A DNA stretch of 64,000 nucleotides, taken from positions 17,264 to 81,263 of IMG/VR virus record IMGVR_UViG_3300032038_006680; one strand, given 5' to 3'. The stretch is from a virus. Taxonomy: Duplodnaviria > Caudoviricetes. The notes below the pieces were generated by a model, which did not search any database, had not been told where the DNA came from, and saw only the letters and a program-made list of their open reading frames with translations. Positions 16,708 through 60,061 of the stretch are shown here, one piece after another (position 1 is the stretch's first letter; each line of letters starts with the position of its first letter). The translations under genes were made by a program, and so were the position numbers.

Positions 16708-17346
16708 ATGACAGAAAATGATTTTTTGCTTCAGGACCGAATAGCAAAAATCAAATCAATCAACGAGCAGGAAAATGTAATAGGTGAAGTTTGGAAAAAA
16801 TGCGTTGACTATGAAGATTTGTATCTAATTTCAAATAAGGGGCGAATAAAAAGTGTCCCTAGAACCATTGAATTTATAAAATATGGGAAAAAATATAGTC
16901 GTAAAGTTTACGAAAGAATTTTGAAACTTAATAAACAATTTAATGGATATTTATCAGTTACAGTTTCTAGTTCTAACTTCCCCAAAGGAAAAAAAGAATT
17001 AGTTCATCGTTTAGTTGCAAAAACTTTTATTCCTAATCCAAGTAACTTACCGTGTATAAACCATAAAGATGAATGTAAGTCAAATAATAGTGTAGAAAAT
17101 TTAGAATGGTGTGATAAAAGTTACAATGCATTATATGGAACATGTCAAGAAAGAGTTAAAAAACACAAAATAAAACCTGTATACATGCTTGATAAATCCA
17201 CTGAAAAGATTATTAAAAAATTCACATCTATTTCAGACGCTGCTAAAGAAACTGGTGCTCAAATTGCAAATATAAGTGCAGTGGCTCGTGGGCGTGCAAA
17301 AACTGCTTGTGGTTATAAATGGAAATATGCAAATAAAGAGGAATAA
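16708..17346 (+). CDS. NUMOD4-HNH-NUMOD1 homing endonuclease
   Basis: EVWKKCVDYEDLYLISNKGRIKS (NUMOD4), VHRLVAKTF...INHKDECKSNNSVENLEW (HNH), KFTSISDAAKETG (NUMOD1); AT-rich; ATG at 16708 after CAGGAG. Confidence 0.9.
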   Translation: MTENDFLLQDRIAKIKSINEQENVIGEVWKKCVDYEDLYLISNKGRIKSVPRTIEFIKYGKKYSRKVYERILKLNKQFNGYLSVTVSSSNFPKGKKELVHRLVAKTFIPNPSNLPCINHKDECKSNNSVENLEWCDKSYNALYGTCQERVKKHKIKPVYMLDKSTEKIIKKFTSISDAAKETGAQIANISAVARGRAKTACGYKWKYANKEE

Positions 17347-55364: not shown

Positions 55365-56693
55365 TCACCTCTTCACCTCCTTTGTCTCTTCTGTCGGCGG
55401 ATTCGGGTCAACCTCGAACATCGCGTAGCGCGGAAAAAAGTTAAGGTATACCGTTCCGCAGGCAAAGTTCCTGTTCTTCTCGACTTTCAGTTTTGTCGGA
55501 ATAAGGAACTCAGAAGCGTCTTTCTGTCTTTCCCTTTCAAGAATCATTACTATGTCAGCGTCCTGGGCCATAGCGTCAGCATTTGCGATAGTTCCTAATC
55601 CGCCGTCCTTACCTTCAGCCTCTCGGTTCTGCTGAACAAGGACTATGAATGGAATCTTCAATTCTTTCTGCAAGTTCTGAAGGCGCTTTGAAATCTCAGC
55701 GAGCATTTCCCATTTGGCACGGAATCCGTCAATGTAAAGGAAGCTCATCTGGTCTATGAATACAGCTCCAATTTGCTGAGAAATAACTTGACCACGGATC
55801 ATAGAAATAATGGTGTCAATATTTCTTTCAGTCGGAAACGCAAACTCCATGTTCTTGTTGTCGTAGAGACGAGCGAAACAGTTATTAAGTGAGCCATACT
55901 CAGATTCAGTCATAAATCCGCTCCTAAGCTTTCGTCCATCAAGTTTAGACTCATTCATAATCGTTCGTTCCATGATTGAGGTCTCAGTCATCTCAAATTC
56001 AATAAACAGAATCTTGCGCTTAAGTGAAAACTTGTTTGCAAGCTGCAATGCAAGAGCTGTTTTACCGAGTGAAGGACGAGCCGAGATAAACGCATATTCA
56101 TCAGGAAATCCGCCGCCAAAAAGCTCATCAAGAGTCTCAAGTCCCGTAGGAATTCCGAATGGTATGGTACGGTTGTTTATCCTCTCATTAAGTTTGTCGA
56201 GATATGCCGGAATCATGTCAGCATAAGCAAGGATATGTGGCTGAACATTGTTATTGAGCACTGCATTAAGCTCGGAGAGAGTTTCCTGTATCTTCTGATT
56301 TGCGTTCTCAGGACGAATCTCAGCCGATTTCGCGAGCACAATTTGATTATAGTTTCGTGCTATAAAAGTATTACGAATCTTGTCAGCGTAAAACTTCCAG
56401 TTACTTGCAGTCGCCGTAGCATTAAGAATCTCCCCCTTGTATTGAGCAGGAATCTCCTTGAACTCAGTCATAAGCAAGAGCTCGTCAACCTTCATGCCCT
56501 TTGCAAAAAACTCTGTAATCTGTGAGAAGCACTTCGCAGAGAGCGGATTGTAGAATGTTGTCGCCTTAAGAGCTGAATTTACTTCCGGGATAATCTTGTT
56601 GTTAAGTATCATCTGGCAGAGAAGGATCTTCTCGCTCTCGTTATCACAAAATGTTTGCATTGTCGCCTCTCCTGTCCCTTCCTTTAAGTTCAA
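55365..56693 (-). CDS. dnaB: Replicative helicase
   Basis: ISARPSLGKT, FIEFEM, VFIDQM, LVQQNRE, QDADIV. Confidence 0.9.
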   Translation of the reverse strand: MNLKEGTGEATMQTFCDNESEKILLCQMILNNKIIPEVNSALKATTFYNPLSAKCFSQITEFFAKGMKVDELLLMTEFKEIPAQYKGEILNATATASNWKFYADKIRNTFIARNYNQIVLAKSAEIRPENANQKIQETLSELNAVLNNNVQPHILAYADMIPAYLDKLNERINNRTIPFGIPTGLETLDELFGGGFPDEYAFISARPSLGKTALALQLANKFSLKRKILFIEFEMTETSIMERTIMNESKLDGRKLRSGFMTESEYGSLNNCFARLYDNKNMEFAFPTERNIDTIISMIRGQVISQQIGAVFIDQMSFLYIDGFRAKWEMLAEISKRLQNLQKELKIPFIVLVQQNREAEGKDGGLGTIANADAMAQDADIVMILERERQKDASEFLIPTKLKVEKNRNFACGTVYLNFFPRYAMFEVDPNPPTEETKEVKR

Positions 56694-57393
56694 TAATTTT
56701 TGTATCCTGTCTCAGCCTTGAGATAGCGTCGTTCGGAAGGTACATCTCAAAACTCTCTCCTCTTCGCTCTTCAGGAAGGTTTCTCGCTTTTTCCCTGTTG
56801 CTTATAAGCATCAAGGGAATCCCTCTTGAATGGGCCTTGTCTATGAGGTATGAGAGCCAGTTAAGCTCTGCCTCACTTCCCTTTGTCCGTCCTATCTCGT
56901 CAATCGCTATGAACGGATAAGAAAGTATATCATTAAGCACATCAAGCTCTGTTCCCTGCCTGTTATTGAACATGGCCCTTATTCTTGCCCCAAGTTCGAA
57001 CATCGTGATTCGGATTCCCTCAAGCTCCCTCGCAAGAGCACAGGCAATCATTGTCTTGCCCGTACCGAAGTTTCCGAGCAGGACGAGCTTCTTGATTTTC
57101 CCCTCAAGCAGTTCCTTCGCCGCCTGTAAAGCCTGTTTTTCGTCATCTCTCTCAGCCTTGTAGTCGTCAAGGGTTACATCAAGGAACTCCTCTTCGATAC
57201 CACGCTTTGAGAGCAGGTATCGTTCGTGAAGTGCGGTCTCTTGTGCAGCCCATTTTTTTTTCTGTTCGTCGGCAGCCTTATCTTTTGCAGTATGCTCGGC
57301 AAGGCATTTAGGACAGCCCAACGAGAAGTTTTTCCACAGGACTCCGACTTCTTTGTTTTCATAGTCGCCGTGTATCTTACAGTGATATATCAT
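56644..57393 (-). CDS. DnaC/IstB-like AAA+ helicase loader
   Basis: LLGNFGTGKT, IAIDEIG, LISN. Confidence 0.85.
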   Translation of the reverse strand: MIYHCKIHGDYENKEVGVLWKNFSLGCPKCLAEHTAKDKAADEQKKKWAAQETALHERYLLSKRGIEEEFLDVTLDDYKAERDDEKQALQAAKELLEGKIKKLVLLGNFGTGKTMIACALARELEGIRITMFELGARIRAMFNNRQGTELDVLNDILSYPFIAIDEIGRTKGSEAELNWLSYLIDKAHSRGIPLMLISNREKARNLPEERRGESFEMYLPNDAISRLRQDTKIIELKGRDRRGDNANIL

Positions 57394-58007
57394 ACTGCCT
57401 CCTTCGGGCCTATGAGCTGACTGAAAATCCCCATAAGAACCTGCTTGATAATTGCATTGCCCGCTTGTTTGTACAGTTGAGTTTGACTGACAATAGCAGA
57501 AGCTTTATCAAAATCAGAATCACAGTATCCCATAAGTCTCCAACACTCTCTTGCCGTAAGTTTTCGTATTCGGTACTGACAACCTCGTTCAAGAACGAGG
57601 TTGTCCTTCTGAACGGTTGTCAAAGTGTTCGTGCAGTTAGTATCGTTCAGCTCCAATCTCTGCTCATTATTCTCACCCCGACCTCTCATTGCTACTATCT
57701 GCTTGTCTTTTTCCAACTTTTCAACACCTCCGAATGAACCGCAATTCTTCCAGCCTAATCCGCCGTTGCGGTTAAGGTCTATCACTTTTAATCCCTCTCT
57801 CTCGGCTCTTATAGTCGGAGCGACTTCCTCGTAAACTCTTGCAGGTCTGTTAGCATAAAAGTCTTCAATGATTTTTGGCTGTATGTTTCCGCCACCACAA
57901 GTTGGGATTGTGGGACACAATCCCAACTTGTCATAAACACGGTTAGCACTCTCGAATGTATGGTCTATCGTGTTATCCATTTTTCCGATAATTTTTACTT
58001 CTGCCAT
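57390..58007 (-). CDS. C5 DNA methyltransferase, C-terminal subunit (TRD modules plus motifs IX-X)
   Basis: IRKLTARECWRLMG...LYKQAGNAI; own RBS (AAGGTGG) and ATG. Confidence 0.85.
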   Translation of the reverse strand: MAEVKIIGKMDNTIDHTFESANRVYDKLGLCPTIPTCGGGNIQPKIIEDFYANRPARVYEEVAPTIRAEREGLKVIDLNRNGGLGWKNCGSFGGVEKLEKDKQIVAMRGRGENNEQRLELNDTNCTNTLTTVQKDNLVLERGCQYRIRKLTARECWRLMGYCDSDFDKASAIVSQTQLYKQAGNAIIKQVLMGIFSQLIGPKEAV

Positions 58008-59032
58008 TTCTCAACCACCTTGAAAGGTTCTTTGTATAAACTTGCATATTCTGTAGGGCAAAGCCCGTTTTTGTCATACACCATATTGCTCTGATGCTTG
58101 CCAGTCCCTTTCTTAATGAAACCCAACGGTCTCACATACGCCGCTACCTTCTTTTTGCCTATTACTGATTCCCCTGTCTCTTGCGGAGATACAGTTTGCG
58201 ACCGAGATTTCTCTAGGTCTCTTGACACATAAGTCGATGGTGCGTATTGTTCTCTGTTCTCTGTTCTCTGTTCTCTGTTCTCTGTTGGTAATACTCCGCT
58301 CTCAATCAGCTCCCTAATCAGCTTGTCAGCCTTTTCCGACTTGATGTAATATTTCTCATCTATAGATTCTTCAAGATAATCTTTCATAACGGTCTTGAGT
58401 TCCTGTGGTTTCGGAAACTCATAGTCAACGAATCCATCAGACAGAATTGAAACCATAAAACATCTGTTTCTGCTCTGTGGAATTCCGTAGTCCTTCCCGT
58501 TAAGGTCTTTTATGAAATTCTTATAACCAAGAGACTTAAGGAAGTCACACCAAAGGTTGAAATCTTGAATAAATTTCTTTGCGTGGACTTGGGTGACATT
58601 CTCCATAAGCAGGACTTGCGGAAGGTCGTCTTTAGGCAACTCTTTAAGAATTCGCTCCACTTCCCATAAAAGCCCCGACCTTGTGGACTTACCTTCTTCC
58701 CAGTCTTTCCTGCTCATTCCGGCTTGTTTACCTGCCACGGAAAGCGACTGACAAGGGAATGAGTATGTGACCAGATATGTGTACTTGTCTTTCTCGGTTA
58801 TTCCCAAGTCAGAACCGTGCACGTCACGGATGTCAGTTACCTTGAAGTCAGTTCCGTGGATTGCGTTGTAGCTTGCCACTGCGTACTTGTCGAACTCCAC
58901 GAGCCTGTAATGCTCGAAATCAGCCCCGATGTCTCTCAGAGCCATTGCCTGACTGCCGATACCACCGAAAAGCTCTATGAGGCGGATTCTGTTCGTAATC
59001 TTGTATTTCGGGAACTCAAAAAGCTCGTTCAT
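57995..59032 (-). CDS. C5 DNA methyltransferase, N-terminal catalytic subunit (motifs I-VIII)
   Basis: ELFGGIG, SFPCQ, RSGL, MENV, IPQSRNR. Confidence 0.9.
   Translation of the reverse strand: MNELFEFPKYKITNRIRLIELFGGIGSQAMALRDIGADFEHYRLVEFDKYAVASYNAIHGTDFKVTDIRDVHGSDLGITEKDKYTYLVTYSFPCQSLSVAGKQAGMSRKDWEEGKSTRSGLLWEVERILKELPKDDLPQVLLMENVTQVHAKKFIQDFNLWCDFLKSLGYKNFIKDLNGKDYGIPQSRNRCFMVSILSDGFVDYEFPKPQELKTVMKDYLEESIDEKYYIKSEKADKLIRELIESGVLPTENREQRTENREQYAPSTYVSRDLEKSRSQTVSPQETGESVIGKKKVAAYVRPLGFIKKGTGKHQSNMVYDKNGLCPTEYASLYKEPFKVVEKWQK
58248..58286. repeat. Heptanucleotide simple-sequence repeat, (ACAGAGA)5 on the minus strand, inside the methyltransferase
   Basis: GTTCTCT units at 58249, 58256, 58263, 58270 and 58277, followed by a partial GTT; encodes TENREQRTENREQ. 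Confidence 0.95.
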
Positions 59033-59041
59033 AAATATCTC

Positions 59042-60061
59042 CTAGAAGAAAAGGTGGTTCTCGTCAAACTGCCGTGGTTGCTGGTAAGAACGAGGTGATA
59101 AAGATTGTTTGTTAAAACTGTTCGGATAATAATTCGGTGCAACCAAAAGTCTCGGAGCAATGTTTGTATGAAAAATGGTTGTTAGGATATATCCCGACCT
59201 TCGGCAGAAATCGTCATCAAAAGAGTTCGTGAGAATCTTCAAGACAGACTCAAGACCGTATTTCGCAATGTTTTGGTTAATCGTTGCACCGAAAGATTGC
59301 CATTGTTTCTGAGAGAATTTCTGTGCTGTGATAACCTTTTGTTCAACAAGTGTGTTGTAGTTTTTTAAATACAAGTCTTTTACTTGCTTAAATTCTGAGG
59401 TCTCTTTTTCTTCTGTGGCTCCGCCACAATGAGATTTAGAATTTCTTTTTCGTTTCGGAAGAGATTCTGAATCAGACGGAATTTTTTCGCTCGGTGAGAA
59501 AGGCTCGTAATGAGATTTAGAATTTTCTTCTTGCAGCAAGGAATCGTTGTCAGAGGATTCGCTTGGTTGCAGAGAAGAAGATTTGTTATTAGTACTTGGT
59601 AATAAGTCTTTAGTATTATCAGTATTTAGTAGTATCGGATTTTCCGTTAACGGATTTCCAGTAACGGTTTTCCGTTTATGGTTATCCGTTACTGGTTCTT
59701 TATCAGAACATTCTTTTTTACCTCTCTGTTTTCTGACAATTTTAGTCTCTCCCTGTGATACTTCATACACTTTATAAACCTTCTTACCGAACTGTCCTTT
59801 ATCACCTTTAATTTCTTCAACGACGATATAACCTTTCTCAACAAGCTCGTCAAAGGCTTTAAGAACGGCATCACGACCGTTTGAGAAATGAGATACAAGT
59901 TCTTCTTTGTGAATTTCCCAGTCATTAGGAAGGGTCATAAGATAAGCGAATAAGCCCATCGCCTGCATTGAGATTGTATTGTCCTTAAAGCAAGCGTTAT
60001 AAACGATTGTGAAGTCTTTGGTCTTGTCTTTAAGACGGATAATATATTCTTGGTTTTCCAT
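59042..60061 (-). CDS. Phage replication initiator
   Basis: DFTIVYN...ISMQAMGLFAYLMTLPNDWEI winged-HTH; low-complexity linker; upstream of dnaC-like and dnaB. Confidence 0.75.
   Translation of the reverse strand: MENQEYIIRLKDKTKDFTIVYNACFKDNTISMQAMGLFAYLMTLPNDWEIHKEELVSHFSNGRDAVLKAFDELVEKGYIVVEEIKGDKGQFGKKVYKVYEVSQGETKIVRKQRGKKECSDKEPVTDNHKRKTVTGNPLTENPILLNTDNTKDLLPSTNNKSSSLQPSESSDNDSLLQEENSKSHYEPFSPSEKIPSDSESLPKRKRNSKSHCGGATEEKETSEFKQVKDLYLKNYNTLVEQKVITAQKFSQKQWQSFGATINQNIAKYGLESVLKILTNSFDDDFCRRSGYILTTIFHTNIAPRLLVAPNYYPNSFNKQSLSPRSYQQPRQFDENHLFF
59632..59697. repeat. Putative ori iterons inside the initiator gene
   Basis: About 14-15-bp periodic A(A/T)CC-N3-(A/T)ACGGA units; AATGAGATTTAGAATTT direct repeat near 59428 and 59509. 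Confidence 0.5.

Follow-up and report, generated by a model that had tools for sequence, protein, structure and literature searches.

Why should a phage keep a cytosine methyltransferase in two pieces, with a repeat of non-triplet units set between its catalytic core and its recognition region? The question is raised by a locus in the IMG/VR virus record IMGVR_UViG_3300032038_006680 (81,263 bases), of which positions 17,264–81,263 were analyzed; this stretch of 64,000 nt is referred to as the window, and all positions are given in its numbering. On its minus strand, at 57390–59032, two overlapping open reading frames (ORFs) make up a single C5 cytosine methyltransferase, as judged by translation and Pfam searches. 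We consider it likely that a split phage C5 methyltransferase of the multispecific type here contains a heritable switch with three states. Because the window lies inside a virus record, the assignment of the locus to a phage by an earlier reading made from the DNA letters alone (the sequence-only reading) holds; the metagenomes with the best matches to the window were two from bovine gut.

ORF1 (57995–59032, 345 amino acids) matched Pfam PF00145 positions 2–266 with E = 1.1e-43 and carries motifs I–VIII, and ORF2 (57390–58007, 205 amino acids) matched PF00145 positions 233–322 with E = 5.5e-10 and carries motifs IX–X. Spread across the two ORFs, motifs I, IV (P-C), VI (ENV), VIII, IX and X stand in canonical order. 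Directly after motifs I–VIII, between the conserved core and the variable region, Tandem Repeats Finder located a perfect 5.6-copy array at 58248–58286, which reads (ACAGAGA)5 + ACAA on the minus strand and is the sole perfect non-triplet array with at least five copies in the window. As in repeat-mediated phase-variable methylase loci, a non-triplet unit (here 7 nt) thus lies within coding sequence. The tract is free of stop codons in all frames, and each frame yields the hydrophilic heptapeptide TENREQR cyclically.

Translation of the downstream sequence bore out the frame assignments of the sequence-only reading, which had placed (ACAGAGA)5 right behind the catalytic motifs. With 3 or 6 units, a short segment termed module A is read in frame up to its own stop codon; with the 5 units present, module A is crossed out of frame and the chain enters a second segment, module B; with 4 or 7 units, an early stop ends the third frame after 10 codons. 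Relative to the present allele, gain of one unit therefore gives the module A frame and loss of one unit gives the early-stop frame. Motifs IX–X had been assigned to a separate ORF with its own ribosome-binding site, and this is ORF2, whose ATG is preceded by AAGGTGG. Coordinates are collected in Table 1.

In the mechanism that we propose, the N-terminal subunit (motifs I–VIII) would end in a hydrophilic linker encoded by the 7-nt repeat, and slipped-strand gain or loss of one unit would make translation enter one of the three downstream frames. Unit numbers of 0 mod 3 would attach recognition module A; numbers of 2 mod 3, as in the present allele, would have module A traversed as a spacer and module B attached; and numbers of 1 mod 3 would bring an immediate stop with no module attached. 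The C-terminal subunit, translated separately, would bring constant modules together with motifs IX–X and join the N-terminal subunit as in M.AquI. No single frame would be continuous with motifs IX–X in all three states, which would be why the C-terminal part is an ORF of its own with its own ribosome-binding site; the gene split would be the feature that permits a three-frame selector. All members of a phage population would share a constant set of methylated sites, to which some would add site A, some site B and some nothing; we infer that such variable methylation could plausibly be a form of bet-hedging where hosts differ in their restriction systems or methylation-dependent nucleases.

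The sequence-only reading had tied the switch to variation in repeat length, and across all relatives the copy number of the junction repeat was found to vary from 2 to 16 units. Seven contigs that are 100% identical over 600 nt upstream of the repeat and at least 99.5% identical over 220 nt downstream have 3, 7, 8, 9, 9, 9 and 10 units and together occupy all three frame states. Heptamer lineages at 98–99% flank identity carry 16.4 versus 8.4 and 10.3 versus 6.3 units, and each of these pairs differs in state. Among 26 resolvable loci, all three states were in use: 11 had module A in frame, 7 were in the read-through frame and 8 ran into the stop. Six viral (IMG/VR) contigs and one contig from a metagenome-assembled genome (MAG) end in the repeat or no more than 33 nt from it, as assemblers break at heterogeneous sites. 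Differences in tract length between near-identical genomes were thus seen in relatives; in the lineage of the window, the comparison is between 5 units and the 2 of its closest relative, L058 (94% amino acid identity), and both alleles are in the read-through state. These two loci also differ by a 3-nt indel in module A that keeps both frames, and module A is intact in both.

At least part of the window is listed as present in 24 sequencing runs. Among the Logan contigs of four of these (X1, X2, X3 and X23), none spanned the repeat; those of X1 and X2 match the window at ~99–100% but end inside the repeat (58257, 58277). In the same two runs, word depth on the heptamer tract reached 984 (X1) and 104 (X2), whereas the flanks stood at ~3–7 (about 5.5 where the tract had 984); many genomes besides this one in the two bovine gut metagenomes must therefore carry (ACAGAGA)n.

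The split and the repeat were both found to be conserved. Homologues forming single continuous ORFs had been named by the sequence-only reading as the mark of a frameshift-decayed copy; in public data, N-half ORFs of at most 380 amino acids account for 109 of the 120 best homologues. In at least 52 of the 120, the peptide around residue 250 recurs every 4, 5 or 7 residues, as a repeat with units of 4, 5 or 7 nt would produce. At the nucleotide level, 33 of 54 related viral loci have a non-triplet repeat placed at this junction, and so do Treponema MAG loci. Those of the viral loci comprise six unit sequences of 4, 5 or 7 nt in 3 to 13.8 copies, and all junction repeat units are purine-rich, stop-free in every frame and encode hydrophilic linkers. 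The same heptamer recurs in 8 to 16 copies on rumen and gut Treponema MAG contigs. A pattern scan of viral contigs with exact flanks found no same-lineage alleles with other unit numbers, and a nucleotide search of GenBank phages returned distant matches only; the best protein match among GenBank phages was the methylase of Dulem virus 39, a single chain encoded by one coding sequence of 1,584 nt. The reading of the repeat as a neutral linker of variable length was rejected because every unit is non-triplet and each change shifts the frame.

Wherever downstream sequence is available, the three frames follow one order, the only exception being L002 with its single module. The module frame runs for 40–51 codons, usually with the core ANCIKARYDAGISN, and then stops; the +1 frame (L002 excepted) is open across the first module and runs into the second; and the remaining frame meets a stop within 0–11 codons in every locus with downstream sequence, L002 included. 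In the simplest related loci, the end of the second module overlaps the ATG of the C-terminal ORF. Conservation of modules A and B at the protein level, on which the sequence-only reading of two alternative tails depends, was found for both: module A is in frame in 11 related loci as well as in P0065, P0072 and P0104, and module B is 62–76% identical in P0002, P0003, P0081 and P0106, which are 57–66% identical overall. The spacer, by comparison, is recognizable only in the nearest relative, apart from two weak (42%) matches. In single-chain relatives, A-type and B-type modules both occur in frame within tandem arrays, and in such relatives, P0018, P0032 and P0058 among them, module A fills the first slot of the variable region. 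This layout, shared by dozens of phages, probably lets a phage population vary its methylation pattern.

Selection on the overlapping frames was assessed from the same nucleotides read three ways. Across ten lineages, the ratio of nonsynonymous to synonymous polymorphism (pN/pS) was 0.53 in the module A frame, while the two remaining frames gave 1.03 and 1.09; the coding frame under constraint is thus that of module A, and the read-through peptide is an unconstrained spacer. The +1 frame has no stop codon across module A in 10 of 10 lineages, whereas synonymous-codon shuffles lead one to expect 0.08–0.25 per lineage. The corresponding product of 3e-9 overstates the significance, as the lineages are not fully independent, but its direction is clear.

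The type of the enzyme was established by tblastn/blastp comparison with characterized phage methyltransferases. ORF1 aligned with residues 2–287 of M.Phi3TI (E = 2.9e-29). Residues 19–199 of ORF2 aligned with M.H2I at 32% identity over 186 amino acids (E = 2.8e-24), and ORF2 also matched M.Phi3TI of phi3T (E = 4.7e-22), identity to the two being 32–33%. In M.Phi3TI and M.H2I, the position of the repeat corresponds exactly to the passage from the conserved helix with DEKYY into the first recognition domain. Module B and the first module of ORF2 have the VY..G..T.T core found in recognition domains of those Bacillus-phage enzymes (M.H2I). When nine C-terminal subunits were aligned, modules were present or absent as cassettes; in ORF2 of the window, at least two modules are intact and another is reduced to a truncated remnant, and ORF1 adds module A or B to these. 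Each module is predicted to confer a target specificity of its own.

Assembly of the two halves is predicted by structure modeling. The ORF1 + ORF2 complex scored 0.90 versus 0.01 for the best control; of 80 solved complexes, 58 reached this mark, as did 2 of 110 mismatched pairs, a rough calibration because own alignments were used. The model runs had at least 71% of contacts in common, and the predicted local distance difference test value (pLDDT) of the partner was at least 58. In the modeled interface, motifs IX–X of ORF2 pack on the motif I region and residues 177–250 of ORF1. Only N-subunit residues 9–250 are used, all of them before the repeat, and none after the repeat is needed. Such packing is how a known fold would be expected to be rebuilt, and the score, which favors assembly, may be a pass from likeness, in that halves of one known fold resemble solved single-chain methylases.

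A number of observations weigh against a working switch in the window copy. Its own lineage was seen with 5 and 2 units only, hence in one frame state; five units is a modest tract, and the copy may switch slowly; and unit numbers come from contigs, which short-read metagenome assemblies can mis-call. The module A core of the window is one residue shorter than in nine other lineages, so the function of the module may be altered or weakened. Module A gave no significant match to the recognition domains of M.Phi3TI or M.H2I, and it is called a recognition module only because of its position in single-chain relatives. The 5.6 units of the window against the 2 of its closest relative, both in the read-through state, the one-residue deletion and the truncated remnant in ORF2 would also suit a relic, in which the family-wide switch is real but this lineage is nearly frozen in the module B state and acts as an ordinary split methylase with fixed specificities. 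Such a relic is unlikely, however. Module A is an intact ORF in both the window and L058, with indels that kept both frames; five heptamer units exceed the three-unit criterion applied to units of at least 4 nt in surveys of phase-variable methylases (PMC7383803); and in relatives, heptamer tracts of 3 to 16 units switch state between genomes that are 98–99% identical.

The sequence-only reading had described the outcome of the three-state switch as two alternative tails or OFF, a switch of specificity. The two tails stood, both modules being conserved, whereas OFF needs refining: the third state cuts only the switchable tail. Because the catalytic half and the C-terminal half with its own modules stay intact, the third state probably corresponds to basal specificities only (no extra module) rather than to an inactive enzyme. 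A further effect of the repeat state, on translation of ORF2, might be speculated upon because only the read-through frame ends on the ORF2 start. Such coupling is one form of a plainer alternative, ON/OFF or dosage control, in which one tail matters, the other frames are incidental and the repeat mainly sets how much active enzyme is made. Of the repeat-controlled methylases known, most indeed switch ON/OFF (PMC7383803), and the 13-nt overlap of the read-through frame with ORF2 would allow repeat state to alter ORF2 translation. Both tails, however, carry conserved recognition-type modules, the +1 frame is open across module A in every one of the ten lineages against the low expectation given above, none of the three states breaks the catalytic half and a separate Shine–Dalgarno sequence serves ORF2, so that we consider this alternative very unlikely. 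That the gene is a frameshift-inactivated pseudogene, or its repeat length an assembly error, is scarcely credible: it is broken relative to the single chains of Dulem virus 39, P0018, P0057 and P0064, and short-read assemblers can mis-size repeats, but dozens of independent contigs whose repeat units differ show the same split, frame order and overlapping start, only the module A frame is under purifying selection, N-half ORFs predominate among the closest homologues (109/120) and tracts of 16–115 nt are mostly shorter than a read.

With a switch of recognition modules as the preferred reading, the locus can be set beside known systems. The multispecific C5 methyltransferases of Bacillus phages (M.SPRI, M.Phi3TI, M.Rho11sI and M.H2I), studied by the Trautner group, are cited in PMC8936443 (refs 45, 57 and 58) and PMC12707154 (ref 31). 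Like these, the present enzyme is phage-borne and has a common core with several short modules in tandem between motifs VIII and IX. They are, however, single polypeptides with a fixed module set, whereas here there are two ORFs with separate ribosome-binding sites, a split that is kept in relatives; a non-triplet repeat separates the core from the first module, and two alternative modules follow in tandem in different frames.

Splitting as such has precedents in the naturally split M.AquI and M.EcoHK31I and in fragment complementation of M.BspRI, M.HhaI and M.SssI (PMC3404938); bisection in the variable region, natural (M.AquI) or artificial, is tolerated and leaves an active enzyme (PMC3404938). 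As in M.AquI, motifs I–VIII and the proximal variable region are on one chain and the distal variable region and motifs IX–X on the other. M.AquI is monospecific, bacterial and without a repeat, and the likeness considered here is one of layout. In the present locus, the split appears to exist so that three upstream frames can be used without losing motifs IX–X.

Repeat-driven changes of specificity are known from Type I hsdS genes, namely the poly-G tract of NgoAV and the “extended” three-domain hsdS of Mannheimia and Fusobacterium (PMC7383803). As with the NgoAV tract, which is placed between recognition domains, the heptamer would change which of the recognition modules are translated, so that the enzyme would stay active with another specificity instead of going on or off. 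The hsdS genes belong to bacterial Type I systems that modify N6-adenine, and their switch yields either full-length or truncated/extended HsdS. Here, the enzyme is a phage C5 methyltransferase, not an HsdS subunit, and of its three outcomes two would attach different modules, each encoded in its own frame of a single stretch. The locus works like the NgoAV type but is no member of it. With the ON/OFF phase-variable methylases of bacterial pathogens, it shares a non-triplet repeat inside the ORF and a tract length that varies between otherwise identical genomes. Those methylases have one specificity and a repeat at the 5' end, whereas here the catalytic half stays whole throughout. In the literature searched, no phage C5 methylase switched by a repeat was described, and no single stretch whose frames encode alternative modules.

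If the proposed switch is real, no repeat-driven change of specificity would have been described before it, either for a C5 methylase or in a phage; it would act on the virus's own epigenetic mark, and it would explain the gene split. The locus joins two ideas, the phase-variable ON/OFF methylases of pathogens and the multispecific methylases of phages, textbook cases of modular recognition: slippage in a coding repeat would pick the fused module from two frames of the same DNA rather than silence the enzyme, and the split would keep the rest of the enzyme independent of frame. Methylation guards DNA against restriction enzymes but sensitizes it to methyl-dependent nucleases. Confirmation would mean that phages hedge their methylation pattern. 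It would also account for many “truncated” methylase ORFs in gut viromes and counsel caution against calling them pseudogenes, and the family would offer interchangeable recognition modules and split points of natural origin for engineered targeted cytosine methylases. More broadly, the evidence leans towards a large group of gut and rumen phages and prophage-like contigs (Treponema and Lachnospiraceae MAGs) in which non-triplet repeats act as frame selectors among recognition modules encoded in different frames of a split multispecific C5 methylase; the switch would be heritable, reversible and three-state, and combinatorial in relatives with more than one repeat. To this, the window, which is from a rumen-type phage, contributes a member with a heptamer repeat and a single switch as well as the statistics on frame selection.

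Table 1. Features of the split methyltransferase locus, in window coordinates
Feature	Position	Strand	Details
Shine–Dalgarno AGGAG, N-terminal subunit gene	59039..59043	-	6 nt 5' of ATG at 59032; direct sequence reading
Catalytic N-half	58287..59032	-	motifs I FGGIGS, IV FPCQ (catalytic Cys94), VI ENV, VIII QSRNR
Simple-sequence repeat (ACAGAGA)x5.6	58248..58286	-	Tandem Repeats Finder: period 7, 100% matches, score 78
Module A	58113..58247	-	44 codons + stop (58115-58113); core ANCISARDRGISN; read with 3, 6 or 9 units
Read-through frame (present, 5 units; also 2 or 8)	57995..58246	-	83 codons open through module A, ending in module B
Spacer in read-through frame	58136-58246	-	37 codons; module A out of frame
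Module B	57998-58135	-	core QSNMVYDKNGLCPT; stop TAA at 57997-57995
Third frame (4 or 7 units)	58213..58245	-	10 codons, then stop at 58215-58213; no switchable module
Shine–Dalgarno AAGGTGG, C-terminal subunit gene	58015..58021	-	7 nt 5' of ATG at 58007
C-terminal subunit	57390..58007	-	recognition modules, then motif IX (RKLTARECWRLMGY) and motif X (GNAI)
ORF2 constitutive recognition modules (putative)	~57861-57998, 57774-57860, 57582-57698	-	truncated remnant between them

Within the N-half, a conserved DEKYYI helix lies just 5' of the variable region, and of the 94 ORF1 columns that are invariant in 17 relatives, 90 fall in residues 1–247. The ATG of ORF2 overlaps the 3' end of ORF1 by 13 nt, and in relatives the codons that close the preceding module (GGAGT..) serve as the Shine–Dalgarno signal of ORF2. 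Programmed ribosomal frameshifting at the overlap was considered and rejected, there being no slippery heptamer but a conserved ATG and Shine–Dalgarno sequence instead. The third module of ORF2 (residues 79–103, 57699–57773) lacks 14 residues, including the T-L core that is kept in the 94%-identical L058, and has the look of a degenerate cassette; in runs X3 and X23, relatives have a matching extra stretch of 42 nt at the joint 57765/57774.

Among the relatives, the closest that are genome-binned (L062–L066) are from rumen and gut Treponema MAGs, with 66–73% amino acid identity over most of the query and some contigs of 157–253 kb, which suggests spirochaete prophages as the host lineage of the heptamer-repeat group. 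L069, which belongs with them, is a short fragment at 81% amino acid identity, L064, one of the contigs, is labeled Cyanobacteria UBA1221, and other relatives occur in Lachnospiraceae and Eubacterium MAGs. In L003 (5140–5260) and L040 (4850–4880), a second repeat, (AGACA)n encoding DKTRQ, lies 5' of the C-terminal ORF and would gate a further recognition module, giving combinatorial states. In L010 (4693–5000), the repeat has been lost and reading passes from module A to the second-module frame via an internal shift; this locus looks like a fixed (locked) derivative of the switch. A protein annotated as “C5 methyltransferase alpha subunit” in Streptococcus phage MM1 1998 (GenBank DQ113772.1) matches ORF2, a similarity that hints at split C5 methylases in cultured streptococcal phages as well.

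The neighboring genes form a replication module, with a helix-turn-helix (HTH) initiator, an IstB/DnaC-like loader and a DnaB helicase. Within the HTH_36 replication-protein ORF (59042–60061, minus strand), 14/28-nt tandem repeats with the unit TTTTCCGTTAACGG occur in 3–4 copies at 59631–59697 and contain a palindrome; they are iteron-like, so the phage origin may sit within its own initiator gene. A run of nine A at 57253–57261, within the IstB/DnaC-like helicase-loader ORF (56644–57393, minus strand), is a possible slippage site.

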